Counted from the stretch's first letter, positions 4,665-33,129 are shown. The stretch: 64,000 nucleotides of DNA from Firmicutes bacterium UBA5389 (GCA_002409965.1 DHON01000092.1:31322-95321), one strand, 5' to 3'. Notes: a model not told the origin generated them from the sequence alone. Made by a program: numbers and translations.

Positions 4665-4676
4665 ACGAACCACCCT

Positions 4677-5294
4677 CTACATAATCGCTCGGTACAGCGC
4701 TCCGATGATAGGCATGAGGATCCATGTCGACACAGGAGTAGCGATAAACACCAGAAGAATGATGTACGAGTATTGCTCCAGTTGATAGTAGAGCCTCGCT
4801 GCATTGCCCCTAAGCACCGCTGCCAGTATCTTGGAACCGTCCAGCGGCGGAATGGGCATCAGGTTGAACACGGCCAGCCCGAGGTTGATCCACACTCCCT
4901 GGTCGAGCGCCACCGCTACTAACTGGATTGTCCCTCCGCGAAACCCGTATGCACCGTATATGAACTTCACCATGATAGAGAAGAGCATGGCCAGAATCAA
5001 GTTGGCGCCCGGGCCTGCGAGGCTCACCATCACCATTCCGGCATCGCGGTTCTCGAAGTTCATGGGGTTAACCCTGACCGGCTTGGCCCATCCGAAGCGC
5101 CGGGTGAGCACCAGCGCGAGCAACCCCACGGGGTCAAGGTGAGCCAGGGGGTTGAGCGTGAGGCGCCCTTCCCACCGAGGAGTGCCGTCTCCCAGCTTCA
5201 CTGCAACGCGCGCGTGCGCGTATTCATGCACCGTCAGCGCAAACAGGAGGACCGGCAAGGTTATCAGGAAATACAGAATATCACTGCCGCTCAA
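4677..5294 (-). CDS. site-2 protease family (peptidase M50B) membrane metalloprotease
   Basis: HEYAHA (HExxH in a TM helix) and NLMPIPPLDG (LDG motif). TTG start at 5294 with RBS GGGGGTG. The track ORF extension to 5447 overlaps an upstream promoter and is judged non-coding. Confidence 0.7.
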   Translation of the reverse strand: MSGSDILYFLITLPVLLFALTVHEYAHARVAVKLGDGTPRWEGRLTLNPLAHLDPVGLLALVLTRRFGWAKPVRVNPMNFENRDAGMVMVSLAGPGANLILAMLFSIMVKFIYGAYGFRGGTIQLVAVALDQGVWINLGLAVFNLMPIPPLDGSKILAAVLRGNAARLYYQLEQYSYIILLVFIATPVSTWILMPIIGALYRAIM

Positions 5295-5315
5295 AGGCGC
5301 CACCCCCTGCGCTCG

Positions 5316-5326
5316 ATTATAGCATA
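5316..5326 (-). promoter_or_regulatory. TG-extended -10 element upstream of site-2 protease / trpS
   Basis: Minus strand: cTATGcTATAAT, overlapping the stop codon of the DUF2229 gene. About 20 nt upstream of the RBS GGGGGTG and the TTG start. Confidence 0.35.
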
Positions 5327-18772: not shown

Positions 18773-19312
18773 CTATGCTTCTACCAGCTGCGCTCCTCGA
18801 TTGATGGCCTCGATGTTGAGCGGTATCAGGTTATGCCTTCGCGCAGGCAAGACCTCCTTCAGACATTCGGCGACCGATTCAGAGGCGACCACATGTGTGG
18901 CCGCCAGATACGCGCCGAGAACGCACATGTTGGCTACTCTATCCGACCCGAGTTCCCGGGCTATGTCGACGGCAGGGACCGCGATGACCCTAATGTCGCT
19001 TCGCTCGGGTTTTCGGTCGATGAGCGAGCTATTGTAGATGAGCAATCCGCCCGGCCTCAGCATCGGCTCGAACCGGTCCATCGACGGCCTGTTCATCACG
19101 ATGGCCGTCGTGGGCTCAGTGACAATGGGCGATCCTATCGGCTCAGCCGATATCACGACCGAGCAGTTGGCCGTGCCCCCTCGCATTTCGGGCCCGTAGG
19201 CAGGTATCCACGAGACGTTCTTGCCCTCATGCATGCCTGCGTAGGACAGGAGTTGTCCTATAACCATTACTCCCTGACCGCCAAACCCTGCGATGGTCAG
19301 TTCCTCAGCCAT
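18773..19312 (-). CDS. vorC: 2-oxoacid:ferredoxin oxidoreductase gamma subunit
   Basis: MAEELTIAGFGGQGV is the POR/KOR gamma signature. ATG overlaps the beta-subunit stop. Confidence 0.85.
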   Translation of the reverse strand: MAEELTIAGFGGQGVMVIGQLLSYAGMHEGKNVSWIPAYGPEMRGGTANCSVVISAEPIGSPIVTEPTTAIVMNRPSMDRFEPMLRPGGLLIYNSSLIDRKPERSDIRVIAVPAVDIARELGSDRVANMCVLGAYLAATHVVASESVAECLKEVLPARRHNLIPLNIEAINRGAQLVEA

Positions 19313-20060
19313 TGCTAGCGCCTCCTTCCGGAGTGCGGAACTCGCCCAATGGATAGTAGGGTATCATGTTCTCCTCGAGCCATGTCATGGCTTCAATGGG
19401 AGCCATGCCCCAGTTGGTCGGGCAAGTGGAAAGGCATTCCACAAGCGAAAACCCCGCCCCCGCCAGCTGCGTGTCGAAGGCTTTTCGTATGGCCCGTTTC
19501 GCCCGCGCGACGTGCGCCGGCGATGACAGGGCCACGCGCGCAACGTAGGCAGCTCCGGGGATCGTCGACAGCATCTCGGCAATGCGGATGGGACTTCCAG
19601 CGTGCTCCAGCTTACGGCCTGCAGGAGACGTGGTGGTCTTCTGACCCACGAGCGTTGTGGGGGCCATCTGCCCTCCGGTCATACCGTAGATTGCATTGTT
19701 TATGAATATGACAGTGATGCGCTCTCCCCTCATGGCAGCGTGGACGATTTCAGCCGCGCCGATGGAGGCTAGGTCGCCATCGCCCTGGTAGGCGAAGACT
19801 ACGGCGTCAGGCAGAGCGCGCCGTATGCCGGTGGCGACTGCGGGCGCCCTGCCGTGGGAGGCCTGTTGGAAGTCGCAGTCGAAGTAATCGTAGGCAAACA
19901 CCGCGCACCCGACCGGGGCTACGCCCACGGTGCGGTCGCGCACGCCGAGTTCGTCGATGGCCTCTGCTACCAATTTGTGGGCAATTCCATGAGTGCAACC
20001 CGGGCAGTAGTGCGTTGCCCGCGGTTGCAGCGCTTTGGGAACAGCGTATACTTGCTTCAT
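19305..20060 (-). CDS. vorB: 2-oxoacid:ferredoxin oxidoreductase beta subunit (TPP-binding)
   Basis: HYCPGCTHG cysteine motif and a TPP-binding GDG...N region. ATGA overlap with the alpha subunit. Confidence 0.9.
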   Translation of the reverse strand: MKQVYAVPKALQPRATHYCPGCTHGIAHKLVAEAIDELGVRDRTVGVAPVGCAVFAYDYFDCDFQQASHGRAPAVATGIRRALPDAVVFAYQGDGDLASIGAAEIVHAAMRGERITVIFINNAIYGMTGGQMAPTTLVGQKTTTSPAGRKLEHAGSPIRIAEMLSTIPGAAYVARVALSSPAHVARAKRAIRKAFDTQLAGAGFSLVECLSTCPTNWGMAPIEAMTWLEENMIPYYPLGEFRTPEGGASNG

Positions 20061-21127
20061 TTTCCCACCTCCGCCTTGGCGATCTTGCGCGCCTCTTCAA
20101 CTATCGCCGCCGCCGTGGGCACGATCCCGCCCGGAGTGCCGTAGAAATGCACGGGTGCAGCCCCCAACGCGCCTAGCTTGACGTCTTCGACCATCTGGCC
20201 CATGCTCATCTCCACTGCGAGGAATGCCCGGGCAGTGCGAGCCACATCGGCTATGACCTGGTATGGGAAGGGCGACACCGTAATCGGCCGCACCAAGCCA
20301 ACGCGGAGGCCCTCCGAGCGCGCTCTGTCCATCGCCGACCTGCACACTCTTGCGGAAGTTCCGTAAGCAACCAACACGATGTCGGCGTCTTCAGTGTTGA
20401 CAGTTTCGCATCTCACCTCGTCAACCTGCGCCTGTTTGAACTTGGCCTGCAGTTTGTGGTTGTGACGGAGGAGGTCGTCAGGCTTGATGTAGATGGAGTT
20501 GATCAGCCTGGTGGCCCTTCCATCGCGCGCCCCGTTGGTAGCCCAGTCGGGAGTCGGAAGATCGCGCGGCGCGGGATCGGGAAACACCACCGGCTCCATC
20601 ATCTGGCCCAAAACCCCATCTCCCAGCATCATGACGGGCATCCGGTACTTCTCGGCCACGTCGAAGGCATGCATTGTGAGGTCCACCATCTCCTGTACCG
20701 AGGCAGGCGCGAATACAATGCAGTGGTAGTCGCCGTGTCCGCCGCCTTTGACGGCCTGGAAGTAATCGCTCTGGGCGGGCTGAATTCCGCCGAGCCCGGG
20801 TCCTCCACGCACCATGTTTACGATGAGGCACGGAAGCTCGGCGCCGGCGATGTACGATATCCCTTCCTGCTTGAGGCTGATTCCCGGGCTCGAAGACGAA
20901 GTCATCACGCGGACTCCGGCGCCGGCGGCGCCGTATACCATGTTGATGGCTGCGACTTCGCTCTCGGCCTGCAAGAACACCCCGCCCACCTCAGGAAGCC
21001 TTCGCGACATGTACTCCGGGATCTCGTTCTGCGGCGTGATCGGATACCCGAAGAAGAAACGGCATCCGGCCCTGACAGCGGCCTCTGCAACGGCTTCGTT
21101 GCCCTTGAATAGTTTGCGTTCTGCCAT
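20057..21127 (-). CDS. vorA: 2-oxoacid:ferredoxin oxidoreductase alpha subunit
   Basis: MAERKLFKGNEAVAEAAVRAGCRFFFGYPITPQNEI is the canonical N-terminus of the alpha subunit. Confidence 0.9.
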   Translation of the reverse strand: MAERKLFKGNEAVAEAAVRAGCRFFFGYPITPQNEIPEYMSRRLPEVGGVFLQAESEVAAINMVYGAAGAGVRVMTSSSSPGISLKQEGISYIAGAELPCLIVNMVRGGPGLGGIQPAQSDYFQAVKGGGHGDYHCIVFAPASVQEMVDLTMHAFDVAEKYRMPVMMLGDGVLGQMMEPVVFPDPAPRDLPTPDWATNGARDGRATRLINSIYIKPDDLLRHNHKLQAKFKQAQVDEVRCETVNTEDADIVLVAYGTSARVCRSAMDRARSEGLRVGLVRPITVSPFPYQVIADVARTARAFLAVEMSMGQMVEDVKLGALGAAPVHFYGTPGGIVPTAAAIVEEARKIAKAEVGK

Positions 21128-21141
21128 GCGTACTGCCCTCC

Positions 21142-21348
21142 TCAGGGTTTAAATACTTCGATGACTGCATCTGGGCACATCCTGCCGCACGTCCCGCAGG
21201 AGATGCAATCGCCCTCGTTGGCGAGATAGGCTGGATGGTACCCCTTGGCGTTGATCCTATCGGCCATCTGGATCACCTTCTTGGGGCAGAAGTGCACGCA
21301 TACACCGCAACCTTTGCACTTTGCCTCATCAAAAACCACTTTGCTCAT
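21142..21348 (-). CDS. vorD: 2-oxoacid:ferredoxin oxidoreductase delta subunit (2x[4Fe-4S] ferredoxin)
   Basis: CKGCGVCVHFCP and CISCGTCGRMCP. ATG 21348 behind GGAGGAGG. The upstream 34 codons in the track are an extension. Confidence 0.8.
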   Translation of the reverse strand: MSKVVFDEAKCKGCGVCVHFCPKKVIQMADRINAKGYHPAYLANEGDCISCGTCGRMCPDAVIEVFKP

Positions 21349-21409
21349 GAATGACCGGCCGCCTCCTCCTACTGCGTTTTTCTGCATACGACTCGAGGGT
21401 GGCTTCACG

Positions 21410-22480
21410 TTACGATATTCTCTTGACTTGCTCGACGCCGGCCAATGCACGGAGGGCCGCTCTGGCCAAGGCCAGCATCTCCTCCTCGCCCGGGTACACC
21501 ATCACCCTGGCGATGAACTTGACCCGGGCAGTAATCCACTCCACCAGCATCTTGGAGTTCGCAGCGCCTCCAGTGACGACGATGGCATCGACTTCGCCCG
21601 ACATGGCGCACGCAACTCGGCCTATCTCCTTGGCCACCTGGTAAGCCATTCCCTCGTAGCACAGCTTGGCTTGGCTATCGCCTTCCGCGATGCGTTTCTC
21701 AACGTCCAGCAGCGAGTTGGTGCCCAGATAGGCTACTAGCCCACCCTGCCCGGTGATCTTCCTTCGCATTTCGCGTTCGGTGTAGTCGCCGCTGAAACAG
21801 AGCCTGATCACACCGGTGTTGGGCAGGGTCCCTGAGCGCTCGGGCGAATACGGGCCTTCCCCGTCGAGGGCATTGCTCACCTCCGCCACTCGGCCCTTCC
21901 GGTGCCCGCCCACGCTGATCCCGCCCCCGAGGTGTACAACAATGAGGTTACAGTCATGATACTCGCGCCCCAGCGCGCTTGCGGCTTGCCGAGCCACGGC
22001 TTTCTGGTTGAGCGCGTGAAAAACGCTCCTTCGCTCAATCTCGGGCAGGCCTGTGTAGCGGGCAACGTCGTCCAGCTCATCGGTGGTGACTGGATCCGCG
22101 ATATAAGCGGGGATTCTGGCGGCCCTGGCGATGTCGCGCGCTATGAGGCCGCCTAAGCTGGACGCATGGTTCCATCCATGCTCGTACAGCGCCTCGACTA
22201 TCGCATCGTCGACTTCGTAGACACCGCCTTCTACAGGAGGCAGAACCCCGCCGCGTCCTATTACCGCGGAGAGCTGATTCATGGCGAAACCGGCTCTGGC
22301 CAAAAACTCGACTACTGCCTCCTTCCTCATATCGAATTGGTCGAATATTCGTGAAAATGCCGCGATTGCTGCAGCATCGTGCCTCAGTGTCTCAGAGGCC
22401 GCAACCTGCTCGCCCTGGAAAACGGCGACTTTCGTGGACGTAGAGCCGGGATTGATCACAAGCAGCCTTGGGTCGCGCAC
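21410..22480 (-). CDS. buk: butyrate (branched-chain fatty acid) kinase
   Basis: RLLVINPGSTSTKVAVF and ASKHG-fold motifs. GTG start behind GGGGAGG. Confidence 0.9.
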   Translation of the reverse strand: MRDPRLLVINPGSTSTKVAVFQGEQVAASETLRHDAAAIAAFSRIFDQFDMRKEAVVEFLARAGFAMNQLSAVIGRGGVLPPVEGGVYEVDDAIVEALYEHGWNHASSLGGLIARDIARAARIPAYIADPVTTDELDDVARYTGLPEIERRSVFHALNQKAVARQAASALGREYHDCNLIVVHLGGGISVGGHRKGRVAEVSNALDGEGPYSPERSGTLPNTGVIRLCFSGDYTEREMRRKITGQGGLVAYLGTNSLLDVEKRIAEGDSQAKLCYEGMAYQVAKEIGRVACAMSGEVDAIVVTGGAANSKMLVEWITARVKFIARVMVYPGEEEMLALARAALRALAGVEQVKRIS

Positions 22481-22495
22481 ATGAGCCGCCTCCCC

Positions 22496-23395
22496 TCACT
22501 CCGATGTCACTATGGCGCAGGCCAGCGAGAGCAGCCTAGCTCTGGGAGAGTCTGATCTAGATGTAAGGACGATCGGCGCCCGGGCCCCTGCCACCAGTGC
22601 CGCGGCTTCGATGTCGCCGAAGTAAACCATGGTTTTGTAGATAGCGTTGCCTGCAGCGATGTCGGGCGCAAGAATGATATCAGCCTTGCCGGCTACGGGC
22701 CCTCCTACTCCTTTGTGCTTCGCGGACTCCGCCGACACCGCGTTATCGAGGCCAAGCGGACCATCGATGATGCACCCTTTGATCTGCCCCCTGTCGCCCA
22801 TCTTGGCCAAGGCCGCCGCTTCGATGGTCTCAGGCATCGCCGGGTTTACCACCTCGACCGCGGCTACGCACGCCACTTTGGGCGTCGCATTTCCCAGCTT
22901 GTGCGCCACACCAACCGCGTTGCCAATGATCTGCGCCTTTTCCTCCAACGTGGGAGCGACTACCATGGCTCCGTCAGTCAGGTAGAAGAACCTATCGTAC
23001 CGGGGAGACTTGAACACCGCCACATGGCTCAAGAGCTTGCCGGTGCGCAGGCCCACCTCCCGGTCGAGCACAGCCTTGAGGAACCCGGATGTGGGTATGA
23101 GACCCTTCATCAGTATGCCTGCCTTGCCCGAACTCACCAGGCTGACGGCGAGCCGCGCCGCGTTCGGAGCATCCGGCTCGTCCAGAATGTCCACTCTGGA
23201 GACATCAAGGCCCACATCGGAAGCCACATCCGCTATCCGACGGGCATCGCCCACCAGTGCGAAATCGCCCATTCCAACGTCGATCGCCATCTTGACTGCT
23301 TCGAGTACCTCGCGGTCTTGCGCCGCCGCTACGGCTACCCGCGCCGACTTGTGTCCCTTGGCGCACGCCACAACTTGATCGAAGGTTGTCAGCAT
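22496..23395 (-). CDS. ptb: phosphate butyryltransferase
   Basis: Pta/Ptb fold, ...AGILMKGLIPTS.... RBS AAGGAGGCG. Confidence 0.9.
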   Translation of the reverse strand: MLTTFDQVVACAKGHKSARVAVAAAQDREVLEAVKMAIDVGMGDFALVGDARRIADVASDVGLDVSRVDILDEPDAPNAARLAVSLVSSGKAGILMKGLIPTSGFLKAVLDREVGLRTGKLLSHVAVFKSPRYDRFFYLTDGAMVVAPTLEEKAQIIGNAVGVAHKLGNATPKVACVAAVEVVNPAMPETIEAAALAKMGDRGQIKGCIIDGPLGLDNAVSAESAKHKGVGGPVAGKADIILAPDIAAGNAIYKTMVYFGDIEAAALVAGARAPIVLTSRSDSPRARLLSLACAIVTSE

Positions 23396-23436
23396 CGTAT
23401 TCGCCTCCTTGGATGTGAGTAGTACAACCTCATGTG

Positions 23437-24552
23437 CTACTGCATCGGTCGAGCGCCGTATTGGCCCGCCTGTTCCTGGCCTTCGAGTACCAGCATGGCG
23501 CTGACGGCCAGGGCCTCCATCTCATTCTCTCCGGGAAACACCATGATCGGCGCGATGAACTCGCAGCGGCGAGTCACATCGTCAACGAGTCGTCTCCAGG
23601 CGGCCAGCCCGCCGGTGAGCGCAACGGCGTCGACCTCTCCTGAAAGCACCGTGGCCATTGCTCCAATTTCTTTGGCGATCTGATACGCCATGGCCTGCGC
23701 GACCTCGAGAGCGTGCGCGTCGCCCTCCTGGATCATCCTCTCGACGTCTTGAGCATCGGTGGTACCTAAGTGGCCGCAAAGCCCCGCTTTGCGTGTAATC
23801 TTGCTGATCAGCTCGGCCTGCGTATACCGGCCGGAGTAGCAGAGCGACACCAGATCCGCCATGGGCAAGCTGCCGGCGCGTTCCGGCGAGAAAGGCCCTT
23901 CATCGTCGGCACCGTTCGCGTCAACCATCAATCCGGCCTTGACGGGGCATATCGATATTCCGCTGCCCAGATGAGCCACGATCACGTTGACATCGCCCAG
24001 AGCGCGTCCGAGCTCGCTCGCGGCTTTGCGGGCAGTGCTTCGGATCGACAGCGCATGCAACCGCGACTGGCGCGGCGCCTCCGGAAGGCCCGAAAGTCTG
24101 GCAAGGGGTTCGAACTCGTCGACAGTGATGGGGTCTGCGAAATACGATGGGATTCCCAGAGGCTGGGCGATGGCGTAGGCTATGGGAGGGGACAGGTTCG
24201 CGGCGTGCTCAGTGGCTGGTCTGCAGCGCAAGTCGTCGAGCATATCCTGGCTGATCATATACGTTCCGCCGCGCATTGCGCTGGGTGCGCCGCCCCGGGA
24301 TACTACTGCGTCGAGTGTTCGCGGGTCGCAATTGCCGGCCTCGAGGCTGGCCAGGACGGCCTTTCGCCTGTACTCCAGCTGATCCCAGATCCCTGCGAAG
24401 TCGGCGAGCTCGTTAACGGGATGTCGAATGCTTTCGGAGTAGACCGGCTCGCGGCCCTGGAAGATGGCGATTTTGGTGGAGGTGGAGCCTGTGTTGACGA
24501 CAAGTACCTTACGCTCGGGTTGCTTAGTGCCTAACGCTCTCACAGAACACAA
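23437..24552 (-). CDS. buk2: butyrate kinase paralog
   Basis: KVLVVNTGSTSTKIAIF...EGPFSPERAGSLP is paralogous to 21410..22480. TTG/GTG start. The N-terminus is uncertain by about 3 codons. Confidence 0.85.
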   Translation of the reverse strand: MCSVRALGTKQPERKVLVVNTGSTSTKIAIFQGREPVYSESIRHPVNELADFAGIWDQLEYRRKAVLASLEAGNCDPRTLDAVVSRGGAPSAMRGGTYMISQDMLDDLRCRPATEHAANLSPPIAYAIAQPLGIPSYFADPITVDEFEPLARLSGLPEAPRQSRLHALSIRSTARKAASELGRALGDVNVIVAHLGSGISICPVKAGLMVDANGADDEGPFSPERAGSLPMADLVSLCYSGRYTQAELISKITRKAGLCGHLGTTDAQDVERMIQEGDAHALEVAQAMAYQIAKEIGAMATVLSGEVDAVALTGGLAAWRRLVDDVTRRCEFIAPIMVFPGENEMEALAVSAMLVLEGQEQAGQYGARPMQ

Positions 24553-24571
24553 CCGCCTTCCCGTATGGTTA

Positions 24572-24582
24572 AGCTATGCACA
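24572..24582 (-). promoter_or_regulatory. TG-extended -10-like element upstream of buk2-ptb-buk-vor operon
   Basis: Minus strand: TATGcAATAAT. Same TATGCwATAmT pattern as the rpsB and S2P promoters. About 28 nt upstream of the buk2 start. Confidence 0.3.
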
Positions 24583-24663
24583 TTATTGCATATTCGACTT
24601 TAAAACGCTAATCCCTCCTGGAATCGCATGTCCCTTCCGCGCCCCAGCACCATCCTTGACGAG

Positions 24664-24700
24664 CGTAGATGGCTCGTGAGCGGGGTACGAGCCATCTACG
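24664..24700 (-). repeat. perfect 14-bp inverted repeat (9-nt loop) downstream of panB at the low-GC island boundary
   Basis: CGTAGATGGCTCGT gagcggggt ACGAGCCATCTACG. No U-tract on either strand. A second weaker hairpin GCACACA-N8-TGTGTGC lies at 24734..24755. Confidence 0.6.
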
Positions 24701-24789
24701 GAAGCTTGCGCACCGGCACCTTGAAGGTTCTACGCACACAGGGATTCGTGTGTGCAACCCAATACCTCCACTTGTCATGACAGCGTGAG

Positions 24790-25653
24790 CTACTTGGTCT
24801 TCTCGAAATGCTCCAGAATCTCGCGCTCTGCGTCCTCACTCACATGGTAGCTGTAGTTCTCGTCTGGGAACACTCCAGTCTTTACCTCTGTGTCGTATTG
24901 GGCAAGAGCATCGACTACATCTTTGCCCATCTGAGCATACTGCTTGACGAACTTAGGCACGAAACGATCGAACAGGCCCAAGAGGTCGTGCATTACCAGA
25001 ACCTGAGCGTCGCAATAGGGGCCGGCCCCTATTCCCATGGTCGGAATGGTGAGCCGTTCGGTGATCACCCGAGCCACCGGGTTCGGCATGGCTTCAAGCA
25101 CCACACAGAAGGCTCCTGCTTCCTGGAGAGCCAGAGCGTCGTCAAGTAGCTTCTGGGCCGCGGAGAAGTCCTTTCCTTGAACCTTGAAGCCGCCCAACTG
25201 CGAGCTGCTCTGAGGGGTCAAGCCTATGTGTCCCATAACTGGAATGCCGGCCTTGACAATGGCGGCTACCGTATCCGCCACCCTTACGCCGCCCTCCAGT
25301 TTCACGCAATCCACTTCAGCTTCCTTCATGAGCCTGCCGGCGTTCTCTATGGCCTTCTCGCGGCTCACCTCGTAAGACATGAAAGGCATGTCTCCCACGA
25401 TAAACGTGTTGGGCGCCCCCTTGACCACCGCTCTGGAGAACAGGATCTGCGTGTCCAAATCGATGGGAACAGTGCTCTTGTGTCCCAGCATCACCATTGC
25501 CGCCGAATCGCCGACCAGGATCATCTCGATGTCGGTCTTGTCCACCTGCGTAGCCTGGGCATAATCATAGGCAGTAACCATTGTGAACTTTTTGCCGTCT
25601 CGTTTCATCTTCAGGAACTGCGGGATTGAAGTCTTCTTCTTCGTTTCTGCCAT
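24790..25653 (-). CDS. panB: 3-methyl-2-oxobutanoate hydroxymethyltransferase
   Basis: KMKRDGKKFTMVTAYDY...ILVGDSAAMVMLGH is the PanB signature. Lower GC than the flanks. Confidence 0.9.
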   Translation of the reverse strand: MAETKKKTSIPQFLKMKRDGKKFTMVTAYDYAQATQVDKTDIEMILVGDSAAMVMLGHKSTVPIDLDTQILFSRAVVKGAPNTFIVGDMPFMSYEVSREKAIENAGRLMKEAEVDCVKLEGGVRVADTVAAIVKAGIPVMGHIGLTPQSSSQLGGFKVQGKDFSAAQKLLDDALALQEAGAFCVVLEAMPNPVARVITERLTIPTMGIGAGPYCDAQVLVMHDLLGLFDRFVPKFVKQYAQMGKDVVDALAQYDTEVKTGVFPDENYSYHVSEDAEREILEHFEKTK

Positions 25654-25666
25654 CTCTGTTACCCCC

Positions 25667-26605
25667 CTAGATCTGCTTCGCGTAGTTCTGCTCTATGGCT
25701 CTTATCATCTCGCTCACGATGCGGTTGGTCGGGGTCGGCGCCTTAAGCCTTTCTCCTTCTCGGACAATGGCGCCGTTGATGGAGTCTATTTCCGTCCTTC
25801 TCTTCCTCAGAACATCCTGCAACATGGAGTTGATATTGCCGCTGGTCTTCTCGCAGACCGTAGCCACTTCGTCAACCATGTGTGGATGCGTGAGCGTTAC
25901 CCCTTTTTTCTCGGCTACTGTCAGGGCCTCCTCGACTAGCTCTCTCTGCAGCGCCAGACTGTGCTTTCCCTGAGTGAGCTCGCCGTTTCTGACCCTAAGC
26001 AACGTTCCCAACGCGTTGATGCCTACATTGACCATCAACTTGCTCCAGATCAGACCCAGCACATTATCAGAAGCATCAGTCTCGATGCGAGCTCGGGTAA
26101 GGACCTGGGCAAGCTCGCAAGTTCGATCAGTGATCAGTCCGCTCAACTCGCCGACTACAGTGGGACCCGCGCCGGCGTGGCATACTCTGCCCGGTCCCAA
26201 CACATTGGCTCCATGGGAAGTAGTACCTGCTACCACGCGCTCTTCACCAAAGATGGAGCTGAGCGTCTCGAAGTTCCCCAAGCCATTCTGTAGGGTCAGG
26301 ATAGTGGTGTTCTTTCCCACCAACGACGACATGCCCCTCGCCGCGGTCTCAGTGTGGTAGGATTTCACAAAGAAGATGATCAAGTCCGATATGCCAGGAA
26401 TCTCCTCCGGCTCAGTTGCCGCCCTGACTTCGATGAACCGATCACCGCTGAGACCTTCTATCCACAAGCCCTTGTCGTTGATGGTCTCCACATGTTCCTT
26501 CCAGACGTCTACTAGATGCACGTCGCAACCCGACTCAGCGAGCAAGCCGCCAAACAACGACCCCATCGCGCCCGCTCCGACAATATCGATTCTCATTGCG
26601 CTCAT
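25667..26605 (-). CDS. panE: 2-dehydropantoate 2-reductase
   Basis: MRIDIVGAGAMGSLFGG Rossmann motif and C-terminal KTSGNINSMLQDVLRKRRTEIDSINGAIV (ApbA_C). Start ATG 26605 or 26596. The track extension to 26701 contains an intercistronic hairpin. Confidence 0.8.
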   Translation of the reverse strand: MSAMRIDIVGAGAMGSLFGGLLAESGCDVHLVDVWKEHVETINDKGLWIEGLSGDRFIEVRAATEPEEIPGISDLIIFFVKSYHTETAARGMSSLVGKNTTILTLQNGLGNFETLSSIFGEERVVAGTTSHGANVLGPGRVCHAGAGPTVVGELSGLITDRTCELAQVLTRARIETDASDNVLGLIWSKLMVNVGINALGTLLRVRNGELTQGKHSLALQRELVEEALTVAEKKGVTLTHPHMVDEVATVCEKTSGNINSMLQDVLRKRRTEIDSINGAIVREGERLKAPTPTNRIVSEMIRAIEQNYAKQI

Positions 26606-26629
26606 TCTCTCTGTGTTGATTTCGGCAGA

Positions 26630-26675
26630 CACCGCAGCCGGGGAGCCTGCAATGTGCTCTCTGCCGGCTGCGGTG
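26630..26675 (-). repeat. intercistronic inverted repeat (12-bp GC-rich stem, 22-nt loop) between C45 gene and panE
   Basis: CACCGCAGCCGG ... CCGGCTGCGGTG, perfect. No U-tract. Confidence 0.6.
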
Positions 26676-26763
26676 CTTGCAGCAAGTCCACGGTCAGACA
26701 AAGCAGACCTGTCAGTTCAAATGTGCAAGAACGCTGCGGATCACGGTAGTTAGTGCAGCACGA

Positions 26764-28185
26764 CTATAGGCGCGCCAGTTCCTCTTTGAGGTTGAAGTAC
26801 TCGTATCCGCCTCTTTGCGCCGGGAAGTCCTTCATCGCCAACCAGAACTCGCCGCTGTCTACGGCTGCGACCATGCTCCACAGGTTGGAGAAACAGGCGC
26901 TGAAGGAACCCTTCTTCTCGCTCTTGTAGAACTTGACGTTATCAGCATATTTCACGATGGGAGAGTACATGCATATGGTGACTCCATCGTTCATGCTGGG
27001 ATGCGACTCTTCCCAATCTCTCACTTTGCCAGTGTACGGGTCGACTCTGTCGCTCAGTATCTGCTGAGCTATCTTCTCGTCTATCTTGCCGTAGTGCTCC
27101 TCCAGCAGCTGTCCGTATCTGACGAACCTAGCTGATCCGCATACGTTCGGGTTGTCCTTGTCCGCCAGGCTCTCTTGCCACTTCTCGATGGTGCTGATAT
27201 CAGGCATCTTGTACACGGGAGCCTGATCTATTACCATACTGTGACCCTCATAGCCCTTCCACCCGGGATAGCAATTGCAGTGGTTAGACGTCCACATGGC
27301 GTCCTTCCCCGCTTCGGGATAGCGGACTGCTACTTGACTCGCTGATGCTTCGATTACTGCAGCCCTGCCGGCCTTCGCGTCCCCAACATGGTAGTTGATG
27401 CCCGTGCATCTCGGGTAAACCGTAAGTATGTTGATAGCGTCTTCAATTACATCTGTATTCGTCAGGATCAGCCTGGACAGAATTCCGATGCCGCAGCCCT
27501 TCAGTGTCTCATTAACTGAGGCGCTGTACTGAGTCATCATCTCGATGCCGTTTTCGCTGATGCCGCCGTCAATAGCGATCATTCCCGGATGGGTAATGAA
27601 TGCGTGGCCGTACCCTCTGTCGGGCTTGACTATGGCCAATATGCGGTGCTCTTTTGCGCCCGGTATGTTCAGGTTGTCCATGTTCTTGCCGAAGATCATC
27701 TTGCCGTTGACAGTAGCCTTGCCCCAGGCCGAAAAGCTGCTGCAGCCCGGCGGATATGCATGCCTGACCGAATGCCTGTCCGGCTCTGCAGGATCAGGAT
27801 GCGCATAGAAGCACCATTGGTCGTACATCGTGTTCCAAAGAACTATGTCGTCATAGTCCAGCGTCGAACCTTGGGCGGCTATCCCGTCGGCAATTCCCCT
27901 CATCTCTTCCTTGAACTCAGGAGGAACGTACCCTTCGGCCGACCTCTTGCCCTTCATCATTACCTCGATAGCCTCACTGTGGCTACAGCCTAGGGCCAGA
28001 GCAATAACGGCGGCGGCTCCGGTAATCGAATCCGGGATGACCTCCGAGATCTCCTTCGCCAGCAGGAATCCGTGTTGATAGCCTCTCTCGTAAGGCTTCC
28101 CCGACAGGTGCAGGACCTTGATGCCCTTGTTCATCTCCAGAAATCCGTTGTCGCGTGTCTTCACTGTCTTCACGACTTGTGCCAT
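26764..28185 (-). CDS. C45-family Ntn-hydrolase (acyl-CoA:6-aminopenicillanic acid acyltransferase-like peptidase/acyltransferase)
   Basis: Autoproteolytic Gly-Cys site (YPPGCSSFSAWG) with an AAT/C45-like flank. Cytoplasmic. RBS GGAGGC. Confidence 0.7.
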   Translation of the reverse strand: MAQVVKTVKTRDNGFLEMNKGIKVLHLSGKPYERGYQHGFLLAKEISEVIPDSITGAAAVIALALGCSHSEAIEVMMKGKRSAEGYVPPEFKEEMRGIADGIAAQGSTLDYDDIVLWNTMYDQWCFYAHPDPAEPDRHSVRHAYPPGCSSFSAWGKATVNGKMIFGKNMDNLNIPGAKEHRILAIVKPDRGYGHAFITHPGMIAIDGGISENGIEMMTQYSASVNETLKGCGIGILSRLILTNTDVIEDAINILTVYPRCTGINYHVGDAKAGRAAVIEASASQVAVRYPEAGKDAMWTSNHCNCYPGWKGYEGHSMVIDQAPVYKMPDISTIEKWQESLADKDNPNVCGSARFVRYGQLLEEHYGKIDEKIAQQILSDRVDPYTGKVRDWEESHPSMNDGVTICMYSPIVKYADNVKFYKSEKKGSFSACFSNLWSMVAAVDSGEFWLAMKDFPAQRGGYEYFNLKEELARL

Positions 28186-28263
28186 ATCTTCTGCCTCCTA
28201 TACGTTTTTCTGGTTCAGCCGCAGGCGTGGCCAACTCGACTCTCCAGTTACTTATCCATTCCG

Positions 28264-28314
28264 GGCGGGCTGCAGCCGCGGACCTTTTGCAGGGATCTCG
28301 GTTTGCAGCCCGCC
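28264..28314 (-). repeat. intercistronic inverted repeat (11-bp GC-rich stem, 29-nt loop) between SBP gene and C45 gene
   Basis: GGCGGGCTGCA ... TGCAGCCCGCC, perfect. No U-tract. Confidence 0.6.
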
Positions 28315-28347
28315 TCGCATACTCAGCGCTTTAGAGGGCTGACTGGA

Positions 28348-29538
28348 CTATTTCCATGCCTCCACGTACGTTACGCATTTCTTGATTCCGTTCTCTATGA
28401 CGAAGAGGAATGAGCCCTTGTCGGAAGGTATTCCGTCCTTCATCGACCACGCCATCTGTATACCGTCGAAGTCCTGCATGTTGCGGATGTAATCTCTGAT
28501 CATGATCCGCTCTGCCTTCAGCTTCTTGGGATCGCCGGTTACGTCCGTCTCCTCGATGGCCCTCTTGATCATGTAGACGCAGTCGTAGTATATGGTGGAC
28601 AGGGAAGTCGGATCCAGTCCGCCATGATCCTTCTTGTAGTTCTCCTTGAAGGTCTTCCAGCGGGGCGTCTCTTTCGCGCCGTCGAAGTAGGCATAGATGT
28701 AGCACCCATTGAGGCTATCCCTCCCTGTGGTATACAGAGGCATATCGTCAGCGCTGCTGAAAATGAGTATCTTGGACTTATCCTTCCAGCCGTACTTCTC
28801 TAGCTCGATGATTATCTTCGCAACCTTCTCAGATGTGCACGTGAACATGAATCCATCGGGCTTCTGTGCCAACGCCCTGACAACCAGGGGTCCGAAAGTG
28901 ACCGCGTCTGTCGGAACCTCAACGGTGAAGGTTTCTACTCCAACGGAAGCCAGCCCGTCAGCGTGAGCGTCCGCCATGCTCGGCCAGCAAGCCCACTTCT
29001 CCACAAACTGGATAACCTTCTTCATCTTGGGCTGCTCCTTGGCCCAGGCAGCGGCTGCGGGGGCCAGGTGTTTGTCCGTGGGTGGATACCACGACAGCGT
29101 CCAGGGGAAGAACTGAGTTGAGTACTCGTAGGTCGTGGAAGCTGTCATGCTGAACAGGCCTTGCCTCACAGCCAGCGGCATGGCTGCCATTATGCAGGCT
29201 TCAGGCACTGGACCCAATGACACCAGGCTCTTGTTGACGATCCTGGCCATTTGCTCAACGGCCTTCTCCGGGCTGACACCCGTGTCGTAGTCCACGATTT
29301 TGACGGGCTTGCCCTTGATGCCGCCCTTCTGGTTGATCTCGTACGCCGCCCTGTGCGCGCTCCAGGCCATGTACTCGCCGATGCTCGCGATAGGTCCGGT
29401 CAAGCAGTTCAGAAACGGTATCTCCCACTGATCTACCACAGCGGCTGAAGGCGCGCCGAGGCTAGAGCCGGCGAGACAGACTAGAAGAACCGCCATGATC
29501 AGCAGACCTGCGAATGACTTAGTGTGCTTTCCCATCAT
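28348..29538 (-). CDS. ABC transporter substrate-binding protein, branched-chain amino acid (HAAT/LivK) family, secreted
   Basis: Signal peptide MMGKHTKSFAGLLIMAVLLVCLAGSS and a periplasmic-binding-protein type I fold. ATG 29538 behind GGGAGGAG. The upstream track extension overlaps the permease and is judged non-coding. Confidence 0.8.
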   Translation of the reverse strand: MMGKHTKSFAGLLIMAVLLVCLAGSSLGAPSAAVVDQWEIPFLNCLTGPIASIGEYMAWSAHRAAYEINQKGGIKGKPVKIVDYDTGVSPEKAVEQMARIVNKSLVSLGPVPEACIMAAMPLAVRQGLFSMTASTTYEYSTQFFPWTLSWYPPTDKHLAPAAAAWAKEQPKMKKVIQFVEKWACWPSMADAHADGLASVGVETFTVEVPTDAVTFGPLVVRALAQKPDGFMFTCTSEKVAKIIIELEKYGWKDKSKILIFSSADDMPLYTTGRDSLNGCYIYAYFDGAKETPRWKTFKENYKKDHGGLDPTSLSTIYYDCVYMIKRAIEETDVTGDPKKLKAERIMIRDYIRNMQDFDGIQMAWSMKDGIPSDKGSFLFVIENGIKKCVTYVEAWK

Positions 29539-29549
29539 CTTTCTCCTCC

Positions 29550-30431
29550 CTAGTTGTTGCATTTGCTGATTCCACCCGATACCTTGCCTTTCAGACGTAG
29601 AAGCATCCGTTTCGTGACTAACCCACCGGGGAGTACGAGGACAATGACAATAAGGGTGAGCGCGTAGATGACTTGGCGCCACGAGGCGATAGCGCTAGGA
29701 AGAAGCAACTGCATGCCTTCTAGGATCGGAACTGAGACTATCACCCCCCACATGGTTGTATGCCCGCCGGCAAAGAGCATGCACATGAGAGTGCCAATGA
29801 CTCCCAGGTTAAAGAACTCGGGGAAGAGACCGCCTATGAGAAACGCGTATAGAGTCCCCGCTAGTCCAGCTAGTGCTCCTGCTGCGACTTGAAAGAACAT
29901 CCCTAGCCTCTTCACGTCGATTCCCAGGGCGGCCGCGGTGTTCTTGTCTACAAAGACCACAGAGGCCGCTCTTCCCAACCGGGAGTGGTCTATCCGGTAT
30001 ATCACCGCTCCCGCATACACGACAAGCAAGTACGTTAGTGGGAGCAAGTGGTTGACCTGTGGAATCCCGAAGAAGCCTATCGTTCCGCCCAGTGCCGGGG
30101 AGTTCTCGACGGCTGTCTTCAGAATGAAGATAATGGTCAAGCCGATGATCACCACCGTAAAGCAGGGCGCATCGCCGATAGCAAACGAAGGGATCAAGCA
30201 GATCAAGATTCCGATGAGTATTCCGACTACGACTATCAGGGCAAAGGGCCATGACCATTCGCGGGCAGCGAAGCCGGAAAAATAGGCAGACGCAAGCATG
30301 CAAGCAACGGTCAAGTAATGGAGTTGCCCAACGCGGTAAGGCAGGTAAAGCGACCAACACATCAGGATATTAATCCCTGTAAATGACAAGAAGTAATACA
30401 GTACTGGCGACAACTGTCCAGCCTCCCCCAT
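29550..30431 (-). CDS. branched-chain amino acid ABC transporter permease (LivM-like)
   Basis: Polytopic permease of the HAAT family. No SD before ATG 30431. Alternative start TTG 30413 behind GGGGAGG. Confidence 0.8.
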   Translation of the reverse strand: MGEAGQLSPVLYYFLSFTGINILMCWSLYLPYRVGQLHYLTVACMLASAYFSGFAAREWSWPFALIVVVGILIGILICLIPSFAIGDAPCFTVVIIGLTIIFILKTAVENSPALGGTIGFFGIPQVNHLLPLTYLLVVYAGAVIYRIDHSRLGRAASVVFVDKNTAAALGIDVKRLGMFFQVAAGALAGLAGTLYAFLIGGLFPEFFNLGVIGTLMCMLFAGGHTTMWGVIVSVPILEGMQLLLPSAIASWRQVIYALTLIVIVLVLPGGLVTKRMLLRLKGKVSGGISKCNN

Positions 30432-30448
30432 CTCGTAATATCTAGAGG

Positions 30449-31324
30449 CTATGCTTCAATGCCGAACAACCCTTCGGGCTTTATCAGCATGATTACGAGC
30501 ATCATCATGAAAGCAATGGCGTTTGACCATGACCCGGCGAGATACCCAATTGCCATGCTCTCGGCGATTCCAAGCAGCAACCCGCAAACCAGGCCGCCCT
30601 TCAGATTGCCCAGACCGGCGAGGATGGAAGCCGCTACTACCTTCATCCCCACGAAGTCGCCGAGACCCGGCGATGCTGATCCCAACAGCCTGGCGAACAT
30701 GACAGCCGTTAGGCCGCCCAGAAGACCCGCTATGGCGTAGCTTAGGACCCGCGTCTTGATGATGGGTATTCCTATGATCGATGAGAGGAGGCTGTTTTCG
30801 CTTATGGCCCTCAGCACCCTTCCCTGCCTTGTTCGATACAGCAGGTAGAAGAAGGCCGCCACGGCAGCGATGCCTCCGAATAGGGCGTACGCTTGCCCTG
30901 CAGAGAAGGCGATCAACCCAGAGCTGAAAATACTCTTTCCTACCCACTCTGTCGGAAAAGCAATAGGATATCCGTAGTTGAGCAGGTGAGACATTACGTC
31001 CGTTATCAAGAGAGCCATGCTCATTGAAACCACGAAAGACACGTTGATGTCCAGGCCGTGTCTCTTGGCAAGCAGGCGGAATATCGGTTCAATCGCCACG
31101 TTCACCACTATGCAACTGGCAACGGAGGCGAGCACGACCAGGAGCATGTTGTCGGTGTGCCGCAATACTCCCCAGCATACGTACATGGACAATACCACCA
31201 GGTGCGGATAGGCGAACTGGATGATCTTCGCGACTAGGAGCATTAGGTTGAACCCCAGTACCAGCAGAACATACATGCTGCCCAAAGAGAGACCGTTAAG
31301 CAGTTGAGCCGCAAATATTTCCAT
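30449..31324 (-). CDS. branched-chain amino acid ABC transporter permease (LivH-like)
   Basis: LNGLSLGSMYVLLVLGFNLM is the LivH signature. RBS AAGGAGA. Confidence 0.8.
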   Translation of the reverse strand: MEIFAAQLLNGLSLGSMYVLLVLGFNLMLLVAKIIQFAYPHLVVLSMYVCWGVLRHTDNMLLVVLASVASCIVVNVAIEPIFRLLAKRHGLDINVSFVVSMSMALLITDVMSHLLNYGYPIAFPTEWVGKSIFSSGLIAFSAGQAYALFGGIAAVAAFFYLLYRTRQGRVLRAISENSLLSSIIGIPIIKTRVLSYAIAGLLGGLTAVMFARLLGSASPGLGDFVGMKVVAASILAGLGNLKGGLVCGLLLGIAESMAIGYLAGSWSNAIAFMMMLVIMLIKPEGLFGIEA

Positions 31325-31353
31325 AGTATGTATTCTCCTTAACTCTGGTTGAA

Positions 31354-32058
31354 CTACACGTTGCTGCCCAAATAGGCACGACGGACTTCCGGATGACTCA
31401 TGAGTTCCTGCGTGAGACCTTGCAGCACCACTCTGCCGGTCTCCATGACATAAGCGCGATTGGCGAACTCAAGCGTCTTCTTTGCGTTTTGCTCTGCCAG
31501 GAGAATCGTATAACCCTTATTGTTCAGGTCGCCCAGGATATCAAAAATCTCGCTGACCACTTTTGGAGCGAGGCCCAGCGAGAGTTCGTCTACCATGACC
31601 AGTTCAGGTTTTGACATCAGTGTCCGGGCTATCGACAGCATCTGCTGTTCCCCGCCGCTCAGGGTTCCTGCAGTTTGGTGAATCCTCTTGCGCAAAACCG
31701 GAAAAGACTCGAACACGTTCTCCAGGTTGTCGTTGAAATCCTGAGGGTTGTGGTAAGCCCCCAATTGGAGATTCTCCAAGACGGTCATCGTGGAAAACAC
31801 CAAGTGCCCTTCGGGTATGAGGCCCAGACCCATATTGGCGACCTTGTCGGTGCTGCTGTTGGTGATGTCGTCTCCCAAGAAGAGTACTTTCCCGCTCTGA
31901 ACCTTCTGAACACCGAGAATCGCTTTGAGCAACGTTGTTTTGCCTGCGCCGTTCGCACCGATCAGGGCCACGATCTCTCGTCTGTCCACTTCAATGCTGA
32001 TATTCTCGAGCGCCCTCACTGGCCCGTAGGATACGGAAACACCTTCAACCTTAAGCAT
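31354..32058 (-). CDS. ABC transporter ATP-binding protein (LivF-like)
   Basis: Walker A GANGAGKTT, signature LSGGEQQML. ATG 32058 overlaps the livG stop (ATGCTTAA). Confidence 0.85.
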   Translation of the reverse strand: MLKVEGVSVSYGPVRALENISIEVDRREIVALIGANGAGKTTLLKAILGVQKVQSGKVLFLGDDITNSSTDKVANMGLGLIPEGHLVFSTMTVLENLQLGAYHNPQDFNDNLENVFESFPVLRKRIHQTAGTLSGGEQQMLSIARTLMSKPELVMVDELSLGLAPKVVSEIFDILGDLNNKGYTILLAEQNAKKTLEFANRAYVMETGRVVLQGLTQELMSHPEVRRAYLGSNV

Positions 32059-32833
32059 GCTGCTCTTCTTCACCGAGATAAGCCTCCAGTACTTTCGGAT
32101 CGCTCTGTATGTGCTTCGGACTCCCCTCGCTGATTTTCTCTCCGAAATTGATGACTGTGACCCAATCACACAGATCGACAACTAAGCTGACATCATGACT
32201 GACTAGGACTATGGTGACTCCAGTATCCCTTATGTGCCTGATAATGCCCTTCAGTTCTTCTGTTTCTTTGAGCCCCATTCCCGAGGTAGGTTCATCCAGA
32301 AGCAATAGCTTCGGATCGAGTACTAAGGCACGAGCAATCTGCACTAGTTGACGTTCCACCCAAACTAGTTCGCCGGCCCAGCGGTGGGCCGAGTCTGCCA
32401 TTCCCACGAAATCCAAAGCCTCTTGTGCCTTTTGCCTGATCTCCCTCTCCTGAGCACAGAAAACACGAGGCCGCCGAAGAAAAGTCCCGATGGGATCGAT
32501 ACCGGAATAGTAGTACATACCTGCCATAACATTCTCCAGTACAGTATCGGGCATCATCATGGCAGCCTGGAAGGACCGAGCAAGCCCCATTCTGGCAACG
32601 GCCTGAGCCGGAAGGTTGGTTGTGTTCACAGAGTCGAGATAGATCTGCCCTTCGGTGGGCGGCAGCAATCCCGAAACCAGGTTAAAGAACGTTGACTTCC
32701 CGGCCCCGTTGGGGCCGATCAGCCCGTGAATCCTACCCCTCTTCACATTGACATCCAGGTTGGTAATTGCCTTGACACCACTGAAATGCTTACTTAGCCC
32801 CATGGTCGAGAGGATTGCCTCGTCTGAAGTCAT
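32051..32833 (-). CDS. ABC transporter ATP-binding protein (LivG-like)
   Basis: Walker A GPNGAGKST and the LivG-specific C-terminal extension. ATG 32833 behind AAAGGAG. Confidence 0.85.
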   Translation of the reverse strand: MTSDEAILSTMGLSKHFSGVKAITNLDVNVKRGRIHGLIGPNGAGKSTFFNLVSGLLPPTEGQIYLDSVNTTNLPAQAVARMGLARSFQAAMMMPDTVLENVMAGMYYYSGIDPIGTFLRRPRVFCAQEREIRQKAQEALDFVGMADSAHRWAGELVWVERQLVQIARALVLDPKLLLLDEPTSGMGLKETEELKGIIRHIRDTGVTIVLVSHDVSLVVDLCDWVTVINFGEKISEGSPKHIQSDPKVLEAYLGEEEQHA

Positions 32834-32919
32834 GCGATCAATGCTCCTTTGCATGCAGCGACTTTGCTTTCTGGCGGCGGCAGGACACTCCATAATCCCC
32901 ATCAATGAACTTGTATAGA

Positions 32920-32948
32920 AGTTTATCGAATATTGCCGATGGTGTCAA
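32920..32948 (-). promoter_or_regulatory. sigmaA-type promoter for the ABC transporter / C45 / panEB operon
   Basis: Minus strand: TTGACA, 17 bp, TAAACT. About 80-nt leader to the livG ATG 32833. Confidence 0.45.
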
Positions 32949-33072
32949 CCATTATCGCCATTACGCCACCGCGTCTGGGTAACGGATTAGGGCGTTTCCC
33001 TGGCGATTACCATAAGAGGATGCCGGTATTATGCTGGGTGGCGCGGCAATGGTAAATACGAAATTTGGGCAT

Positions 33073-33097
33073 AAAAAAAAGCCGGAACTGATCCGGC
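33073..33097 (-). terminator. intrinsic terminator downstream of pnp
   Basis: On the minus strand: GCCGGA-tcagt-TCCGGC followed by TTTTTTTT. Lies 33 nt after the pnp stop. Confidence 0.7.
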
Positions 33098-33129
33098 TGT
33101 GTTGCTATATTGCTATATGCGGCACTAAC

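Follow-up and report, generated by a model that had tools for sequence, protein, structure and literature searches.

A horizontally acquired cassette with a C45-family Ntn hydrolase, PanE and PanB as a candidate module for pantothenate uptake and breakdown in an uncultured Bacillota bacterium

The 64,000-nucleotide stretch DHON01000092.1:31322-95321 of Firmicutes bacterium UBA5389 (GCA_002409965.1), hereafter the window, holds a horizontally acquired metabolic cassette without mobility genes between the pnp terminator and the buk promoter. Its eight genes encode an ATP-binding cassette (ABC) importer of the HAAT family, a C45-family N-terminal nucleophile (Ntn) hydrolase, the ketopantoate reductase (KPR) PanE, and the ketopantoate hydroxymethyltransferase PanB. 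On the basis of gene neighbourhood, the cassette is read here as a module for the uptake and breakdown of pantothenate (vitamin B5), with C45 as the candidate pantothenase, at a probability of about 0.4–0.5. In its full form, held at roughly 0.42, this reading takes the C45 proteins of one clade (clade A, defined below) as the long-unidentified pantothenase, which together with reversed PanE and PanB would form a hitherto undescribed, horizontally mobile anaerobic B5 catabolic pathway in Bacillota and Atribacterota of digesters and sediments. The pathway would run from pantothenate through pantoate and ketopantoate to 2-oxoisovalerate and methylene-tetrahydrofolate (methylene-THF), and from 2-oxoisovalerate to isobutyrate and ATP. 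The cassette would thus be an accessory catabolic one, for a pathway known biochemically, not genetically.

Horizontal Acquisition of the Cassette

A horizontal insertion between pnp and buk had been proposed in a preliminary description of the window, and it is borne out by relatives with empty sites together with homologous cassettes of matching composition in unrelated contexts. Three contigs, L097, L098, and L099, whose pnp proteins are 90, 89 and 81% identical to that of the window, hold no cassette; in them, rpsO-pnp is followed within 137–170 bp by buk-ptb-buk-ferredoxin-vorABC-DUF3866. Nucleotide synteny with these relatives breaks at window position 33071 and picks up again at about 24497–24640, and by intergenic alignment the insert extends over approximately 24640–33070 (~8.43 kb); it sits immediately 3' of the T-run of the pnp terminator and borders the conserved promoter region of buk on its other side. 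Consequently, the right border had been correctly placed at the pnp terminator, whereas the left one, given as 24553, needs to be moved, since 24553–24640 is the native buk promoter region. These empty-site relatives came from a protein search and contig look-ups. A contig scan with pnp gave, among the matches listed, distant Bacillota only (at most 68% identity), none with buk or cassette genes near pnp, and these matches are uninformative on the insertion.

The borders had also been described as free of recombinases and tRNAs, and indeed the window has no tRNA, and neither the block nor its immediate surroundings encode a recombinase. The tyrosine recombinase gene closest to the cassette, at ~14.7–15.6 kb of the window, is a native one, also conserved in the relatives. 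No terminal, direct or inverted repeats were found at the cassette edges.

The same eight genes are found in L087 (GCA_033808915.1), with 72–84% amino-acid identity and entirely different flanks, and in L106, a Bacillota metagenome-assembled genome (MAG), with 74–95% identity and unrelated flanks. Homology to these two cassettes spans only from 32837 or 32833 to 24800 or 24817 of the window, and its limits coincide exactly with the start codon of livG and the stop codon of panB. Their GC content by codon position equals that of the cassette of the window, which fits a donor of that kind. Other cassettes with ~35% GC (L090, L113, and L117) are less similar (64–78%), and their PanB proteins are 79–89% identical to proteins that NCBI labels Atribacterota. 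This similarity of PanB, on which the assignment of the low-GC contigs to Atribacterota rests, indicates that the cassette crosses phylum boundaries.

Regarding composition, a GC drop of about 12 points had been reported at the borders. The drop is real but smaller, with 54.3% for 24553–33060 versus 61.65% for the rest of the window (7.3 points), and it lies chiefly in codon positions 1 (GC1 0.549 versus 0.655) and 2 (GC2 0.397 versus 0.473), GC3 being less different (0.683 versus 0.729). Despite this smaller contrast, the block is a clear compositional outlier, with a tetranucleotide distance to the rest of the window of z = 7–8.6 and a pooled relative synonymous codon usage distance of 0.069, compared to 0.035 ± 0.007 for sets of eight genes drawn at random from the host. 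A native block whose low GC simply stems from the amino acids favoured in membrane and transport proteins would agree with the deficit at codon positions 1 and 2, and with the L106 cassette likewise lying below its flanks in GC1 and GC2; however, this explanation has next to no chance and is rejected, as three relatives show an empty site at exactly this position and the cassette is found elsewhere with unrelated flanks.

Gene Neighbourhoods of C45 Homologues

Around 90 loci encoding C45 homologues were gathered, and their neighbours were screened by tblastn for transporter, pan, S58, M20, aminotransferase, aldehyde dehydrogenase, and IclR genes. The family falls into two clean clades by indel signature. 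Members of clade A are at least 52% identical to the C45 protein of the window and hold an insertion of 6–9 residues at positions 404–436. At least one screened neighbour gene is present in 33 of the 37 clade A loci; of the remaining four, one carries PanF, and the flanks of the other three are shorter than 750 bp. Clade B takes in Methanothrix, Methanosarcina, Desulfobacterales, and Spirochaetota, and none of its 51 loci has any screened neighbour. The distant homologues (those of Methanosarcina, Methanothrix, and Desulfobacterales, as well as P0031 and P0045) have no pan or transport neighbours, so they are uninformative on function.

A Pfam census of 114 neighbouring open reading frames (ORFs) from 17 dereplicated clade A loci gave the transport domains ABC_tran (17), BPD_transp_2 (10), and Peripla_BP_6 (9), together with ApbA (7), Pantoate_transf (6), Peptidase_S58 (6), M20 (5), Aminotran_3 (4), IclR (3), and Aldedh (2), and no PanC, PanD or PanK. 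The presence of panB and panE without panC and panD, already pointed out for the window, is supported by tblastn searches with the E. coli PanC and PanD proteins (queries validated against PDB 1iho and 1ppy), which find neither in the window. Likewise, no match was obtained in any of the ~90 C45 loci, and neither gene lies within 10 kb in the ~37 related (clade A) loci. PanC, usually with PanD, alongside panB is the mark of a pantothenate biosynthesis operon, and this arrangement is found neither in the window nor in the C45 loci.

The C45 genes of clade A consistently lie beside an importer, which is of one of four types: HAAT ABC, Opp/Dpp ABC, TAXI-TRAP, and SSF. As the importer type varies between loci, what stays constant seems to be the uptake of some small molecule, which is probably a carboxylate. 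In L114, L115 and L116, the SSF importer is the sodium/pantothenate symporter PanF (TIGR02119, 650 bits; cutoff 328), whose gene comes after its usual DUF997 partner and stops 40 bp short of C45.

The pair formed by panB and a ketopantoate reductase gene, either of the PanE type or of the non-orthologous PanG type, is found beside C45 in at least nine lineages. In L092, a DUF2520 protein stands in for the PanE-type reductase; this domain corresponds to the PanG family of ketopantoate reductases (PMC4572677). In both L092 and L121, PanB shares no more than 50–57% identity with the cassette type. This replacement, together with the divergent PanB lineages, indicates that the association of C45 with pan genes arose more than once. 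A further arrangement is that of L114 (847–7364), where DUF997-PanF-C45-S58-Iso_dh and a convergent aldehyde:ferredoxin oxidoreductase gene are encoded without panE or panB. A dehydrogenase of the Iso_dh family and an aldehyde:ferredoxin oxidoreductase are the enzyme types that the classical aldopantoate/dimethylmalate route would need, and L114 is thus suggestive of an alternative form of the pathway that would proceed via dimethylmalate and do without PanE and PanB.

Genes for beta-alanine catabolism and an IclR regulator often accompany C45 in clade A, and fuller versions of the cassette are those of L087 and L106. Directly upstream of the transporter, and in the same orientation, they encode a class-III aminotransferase (Aminotran_3) and a coenzyme A (CoA)-acylating methylmalonate-semialdehyde dehydrogenase (MMSDH; TIGR01722, 562 bits; cutoff 448), under IclR. 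These two enzymes are a one-way (irreversible) beta-alanine catabolic pair. Compared to them, the cassette of the window is a minimal version, with no IclR, aminotransferase or dehydrogenase.

After the cassette, L087 (13448–14527) and L106 (12910–13986) also hold a gene for an acid phosphatase of the lipoprotein e(P4) family (TIGR01533, 200 bits, just below the cutoff of 216). This enzyme could remove phosphate from phosphopantothenate or CoA fragments outside the cell, before they are taken up.

Clade B C45 proteins (43–51% identical) are widespread in methanogens, Desulfobacterales, and Spirochaetota, as seen in ~50 metagenome loci and in the genomes of Methanosarcina siciliae (CP009508) and Methanothrix harundinacea (CP003117). 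In these two genomes (L094 and L095), C45 lies beside secreted M4 or C25 peptidases.

Identity of the Encoded Proteins

The annotation of a C45-family autoproteolytic acyltransferase/peptidase in the preliminary description agrees with the matches of this protein to NF040521 (151 bits; cutoff 85) and PF03417 (77 bits; cutoff 23). Its motif G147-C148-S-S-F-S-A-W is invariant in 43 homologues, and the protein is predicted to cleave itself between Gly147 and Cys148, freeing an N-terminal Cys nucleophile. The AlphaFold2 model (predicted local distance difference test score, 89.4) has a sole low-confidence/disordered loop, residues 139–146, just before Cys148, and displays the alpha-beta-beta-alpha fold of Ntn hydrolases. 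Its best fold match in the PDB by Foldseek is isopenicillin-N acyltransferase (IAT; 2x1c/2x1d/2x1e), with E 2e-20, a template modelling (TM) score by target of 0.78–0.80, and 18% identity; cephalosporin acylases, acid ceramidase, NAAA, and bile-salt hydrolases come next. Motif and fold together point to a family C45 enzyme of the self-processing Cys-Ntn type, either an amide hydrolase or an acyltransferase.

Searched by sequence against the PDB, the C45 protein gave a marginal match to acid ceramidase (E 0.16) only, and neither the PDB nor the literature searched yielded a close relative that has been characterised. A plasmid collection held only two remote C45 genes (~25% identity). The protein has no signal peptide by sequence, so it would act on an imported substrate.

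PanE reaches its family profile (TIGR00745) and no narrower equivalog model. Its best PDB matches are all KPRs, and the motifs LQNG, K..N, S..QD, and TEID align with those of 3hwr. The longest ORF, of 344 residues, begins at 26701; the probable start is Met36 (26596), and homologues have 309 residues. PanB scores as an equivalog with TIGR00222 and also with NF001452 (373 bits; cutoff 272).

By its profile scores, the importer is a member of the HAAT family only, and not LIV-I. LivG reaches 199 of the 362 bits required (NF008449), LivF 247 of 441, LivH 81 of 379, LivM 27 of 366, and the binding protein 48 of 477. The resemblance of the binding protein to the LivJ/LivK structures is remote (E 1e-11, 47 bits).

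Proposed Pathway and Competing Explanations

According to the proposed mechanism, the simplest one to give every part a role, the HAAT-type importer would take up pantothenate or a close pantoyl-amide. The cytoplasmic C45 hydrolase, activated by the self-cleavage that its motif and fold suggest, would then hydrolyse the amide bond of pantoyl-beta-alanine and, judging from its genomic context, act as a pantothenase (EC 3.5.1.22). Subsequently, PanE would oxidise pantoate to ketopantoate, and PanB would split the latter by a retro-aldol reaction into 2-oxoisovalerate and 5,10-methylene-THF; the identity of both enzymes is well founded, and it is their direction that the mechanism supposes. The 2-oxoisovalerate would enter the adjacent native route formed by 2-oxoisovalerate:ferredoxin oxidoreductase (VOR), Ptb, and Buk, which would yield isobutyrate and ATP. 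In the fuller clusters, the IclR-regulated aminotransferase and CoA-acylating (methyl)malonate-semialdehyde dehydrogenase would dispose of beta-alanine.

The preliminary description had instead deduced the production of pantoate from 2-oxoisovalerate, which is probably the wrong direction. Breakdown is favoured over synthesis because importers (PanF among them), an amide hydrolase, IclR, a beta-alanine transaminase, and a CoA-acylating dehydrogenase make up the conserved partners; because panC and panD are absent from the ~37 related loci; and because the cassette adjoins VOR. In contrast, two other suggestions made there hold up in the light of the clade A neighbourhoods, namely that the gene combination is unusual and that it may serve the uptake of an N-acylated or pantoate-containing compound. 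The reactions of PanB and PanE are both reversible in vitro, as known for the E. coli enzymes. The literature searches retrieved no paper assigning genes to pantothenate catabolism, and the protein carrying pantothenase activity has been reported as unknown (PMC10393543).

Several points weigh against pantothenate breakdown. With no pantothenase reference sequence for comparison, the assignment of C45 draws its support from context only, and the adjacency of PanF and C45 is found in one lineage only (three contigs). The recurrent S58 and M20 hydrolases are left unexplained by the proposed pathway, and in the loci that encode one, it could itself be the enzyme that truly cleaves pantothenate. 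PanB and PanE look like ordinary biosynthetic enzymes, and the equilibrium of PanE favours the formation of pantoate, according to the kinetics of E. coli KPR, so that reverse flux needs product removal. Moreover, the aminotransferase/MMSDH pair and IclR are missing from the cassette of the window itself. Finally, pantothenate is a trace nutrient, for which an eight-gene catabolic system seems costly.

In a rival explanation, the cassette provides precursors for biosynthesis. In that case, the importer would bring in a beta-alanine amide or peptide, from which C45 (with S58 and M20 in relatives) would free beta-alanine, while PanB and PanE would make pantoate in the forward direction and a PanC encoded elsewhere would join both products. 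Such provisioning is in line with the scores of PanB and PanE as ordinary biosynthetic enzymes, with the recurrence nearby of S58 (DmpA/BapA family) and M20 deacylases, families able to release beta-amino acids, and with the recycling of beta-alanine from pantothenate by bacteria (PMC10393543). It is nevertheless considered a real but less likely alternative, given that panC and panD never appear within 10 kb in the ~37 loci, that the CoA-acylating semialdehyde dehydrogenase of L087 and L106 destroys the carbon of beta-alanine irreversibly, and that the PanF encoded beside C45 imports the finished vitamin. Provisioning is also a poor fit for IclR regulators and importers, both of them typical of operons that serve catabolism.

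Also judged a real but less likely alternative is the catabolism of an amide unrelated to pantothenate, for instance a beta-peptide, an N-acyl amino acid or some natural product, with enzymes like PanB and PanE acting on analogous 2-oxo and 2-hydroxy acids. The KPR family does include further 2-hydroxyacid dehydrogenases; Opp/Dpp and HAAT importers accompanied by S58 and M20 peptidases suggest peptide-like substrates, and the clade B C45 genes of methanogens lie near secreted peptidases. However, PanB scores 120 bits above its equivalog cutoff, the adjacency of PanF points to pantothenate, and the exchange of PanE for a PanG-type enzyme beside panB argues that ketopantoate reduction/oxidation is the selected activity (PMC4572677).

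Lastly, a C45 acyltransferase replacing PanC, which would condense an activated pantoyl donor with beta-alanine in a PanC-independent route to pantothenate, is very improbable and was rejected: the nearest structural relative is an acyltransferase (IAT) and panC is absent from all loci, but the cassette encodes no enzyme able to activate pantoate, the importers, IclR, and beta-alanine catabolic genes do not suit biosynthesis, and synthesis would be redundant given the adjacency of PanF.

Relation to Known Systems

Pantothenase activity has been known since the 1960s. In the classical route of Pseudomonas P-2/P. fluorescens, pantothenase (EC 3.5.1.22) acts first, and pantoate is then converted through aldopantoate and 3,3-dimethylmalate into 2-oxoisovalerate. 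Like this route, the proposed pathway would split pantothenate into pantoate and beta-alanine, with the pantoate carbon ending in 2-oxoisovalerate and beta-alanine being degraded via malonate semialdehyde. However, its pantoate branch is predicted to proceed through reversed PanE and PanB (oxidation at C2 and retro-aldol cleavage) rather than through oxidation at C4 and decarboxylation, although the Iso_dh-family enzyme and the aldehyde:ferredoxin oxidoreductase of L114 could correspond to the classical route. As for the beta-alanine branch (omega-aminotransferase and CoA-acylating dehydrogenase), both genes are found in L087 and L106, and neither in the truncated cassette of the window.

The PanB and PanE of the cassette are bona fide members of their families, as in panBCD(E) biosynthesis operons. 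Unlike these operons, the cassette lacks PanC and PanD, joins an importer and an amide hydrolase in its operon, is mobile as a unit, and has catabolic neighbours in relatives. The importer shares its five-component architecture and domain families with LIV-I/HAAT systems (LivJ/K-HMGF, UrtABCDE); all its components, however, score far below the Liv and Urt equivalog cutoffs, and homologous clusters swap the transporter for an Opp-type, TAXI-TRAP or PanF one.

C45 resembles the IAT of Penicillium chrysogenum (PDB 2x1c–2x1e) in the alpha-beta-beta-alpha Ntn fold, the internal Gly-Cys site, and the PF03417 domain. It differs in its length (473 residues versus ~357), in its longer N-terminal pro-segment (147 residues) and C-terminal extension, and in the low identity between both proteins mentioned above. 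Contrary to the fungal enzyme, it belongs to prokaryotes, its homologues being found in bacteria and archaea, and its genomic surroundings have nothing to do with beta-lactam synthesis.

If the proposed pathway is true, a gene would be assigned to pantothenase, an activity whose protein lacks identification, and two textbook biosynthetic enzymes, PanB and PanE, would have been recruited into catabolism. It would also describe a route by which fermentative anaerobes consume B5 or CoA debris, with a bearing on vitamin cross-feeding and auxotrophy in digesters, sediments, and the gut, and provide the first physiological role for a bacterial member of the C45 family. A model Cys-Ntn hydrolase cleaving the pantothenate amide bond would be a relevant precedent for human TANGO2. 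This protein has a Cys-Ntn fold with the C45-annotated 3gvz as its closest structural match, and its deficiency has been treated with vitamin B5; the cleavage of the pantothenate amide of acyl-CoA by TANGO2 has been modelled speculatively (PMC12359130).

Organization of the Cassette

The features of the cassette and its borders are listed in Table 1. Pfam and NCBIfam matches uphold the eight co-directional genes, and their order, as previously described, all of them on the minus strand. The start codon of the livG-like gene and the calls of the livF-like and permease 2 genes follow public gene calls.

Table 1. Coordinates of the cassette genes, putative regulatory elements, and flanking features in the window.
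Feature	Position	Strand	Evidence or remark
pnp	33130-35328		Flanks the cassette on one side
Native pnp terminator (hairpin and T-run)	33080..33098	(-)	Conserved in L097 and L098
Sigma-70-like putative promoter, TTGACA-17-TAAACT	32920..32948	(-)	10/12 consensus matches; inside the inserted DNA
LivG-like ABC ATPase (260 aa)	32051..32833	(-)	PF00005 and PF12399
LivF-like ABC ATPase (239 aa)	31354..32073	(-)	NF008626, 247 bits
HAAT-family permease 1 (LivH-like)	30449..31324	(-)	PF02653 (BPD_transp_2), 108 bits
HAAT-family permease 2 (LivM-like)	29550..30413	(-)	PF02653 (BPD_transp_2), 51 bits
Solute-binding protein (Peripla_BP_6) with N-terminal signal sequence; proposed ligand, pantothenate	28348..29538	(-)	PF13458, 127 bits
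C45-family Ntn hydrolase proenzyme, cytoplasmic, 473 aa	26764..28185	(-)	NF040521, PF03417
PanE, ketopantoate reductase	25667..26596 (or 26701)	(-)	TIGR00745, 283 bits (cutoff 141)
PanB, ketopantoate hydroxymethyltransferase	24790..25653	(-)	TIGR00222, 328 bits (cutoff 207)
Perfect 14-bp hairpin downstream of panB, no T-run	24664..24700	(-)	Possible end of the cassette transcript
buk	23437-24543		Flanks the cassette on the other side
Native buk-ptb-buk-ferredoxin-vorABC cluster	18773..24543	(-)	Pfam and NCBIfam matches, public gene calls

Tight packing behind a single promoter had been described as well. A promoter-like site is indeed present, recognised by its match to the consensus, but packing is not uniform, as three intergenic gaps of ~160 bp are found after panB (24645–24790), after C45 (26597–26740), and after the binding-protein gene (28186–28330). 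Each of them holds a strong GC-rich hairpin with a stem of 11–14 bp (z of about −2.1 to −2.8) and no T-run. Since these gaps interrupt the gene row, a single promoter and transcript is unproven, and the hairpins may be mRNA-stabilising or partial-termination elements that set unequal expression within the operon.

Host Region and Native Neighbourhood

The window covers part of the core chromosome of its host, with spoVAD, a sigma factor gene, codY, hslU, rpsB, dxr, and ispG, as well as polC, nusA, infB, truB, ribF, rpsO, and pnp. Identical sequence is found in the MAG GCA_002411445.1 (contig DHSX01000122.1, which bears the label 'Firmicutes bacterium') and also turns up in numerous metagenomes from digesters and fermentations, and the host is an uncultured, anaerobic, spore-forming Bacillota bacterium of anaerobic digesters.

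Between DUF3866 and spoIIM lies an ORF of 400 residues (16388–17590) with no Pfam match, whose position is kept in all three relatives. Rfam gave zero matches across the 64 kb, none in the block at E ≤ 1, and none in the 640-bp lower-GC leader of trpS (4674–5316), where a Bacillota T-box might be expected.

The buk-ptb-buk-ferredoxin-vorABC cluster, with the genes for branched-chain acid fermentation, lies directly downstream of the cassette and occupies the same place in relatives without it. Within it, ptb has a butyrate-kinase gene on either side (21410–24543; the two paralogues are 46% identical), and ferredoxin-vorABC-DUF3866 follows downstream; this arrangement is kept in relatives with pnp 81–90% identical. 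The copy in GCA_002411445.1 (L004, 16238–16809) differs from the window (21705–21948) within the second buk gene, where it holds ~350 extra bases, including an inverted piece of 229 bp, and the second acetate/butyrate-kinase gene is uncalled there. This difference is either an assembly artefact or a real disruption; the window and five metagenome contigs agree against the MAG copy at this gene.

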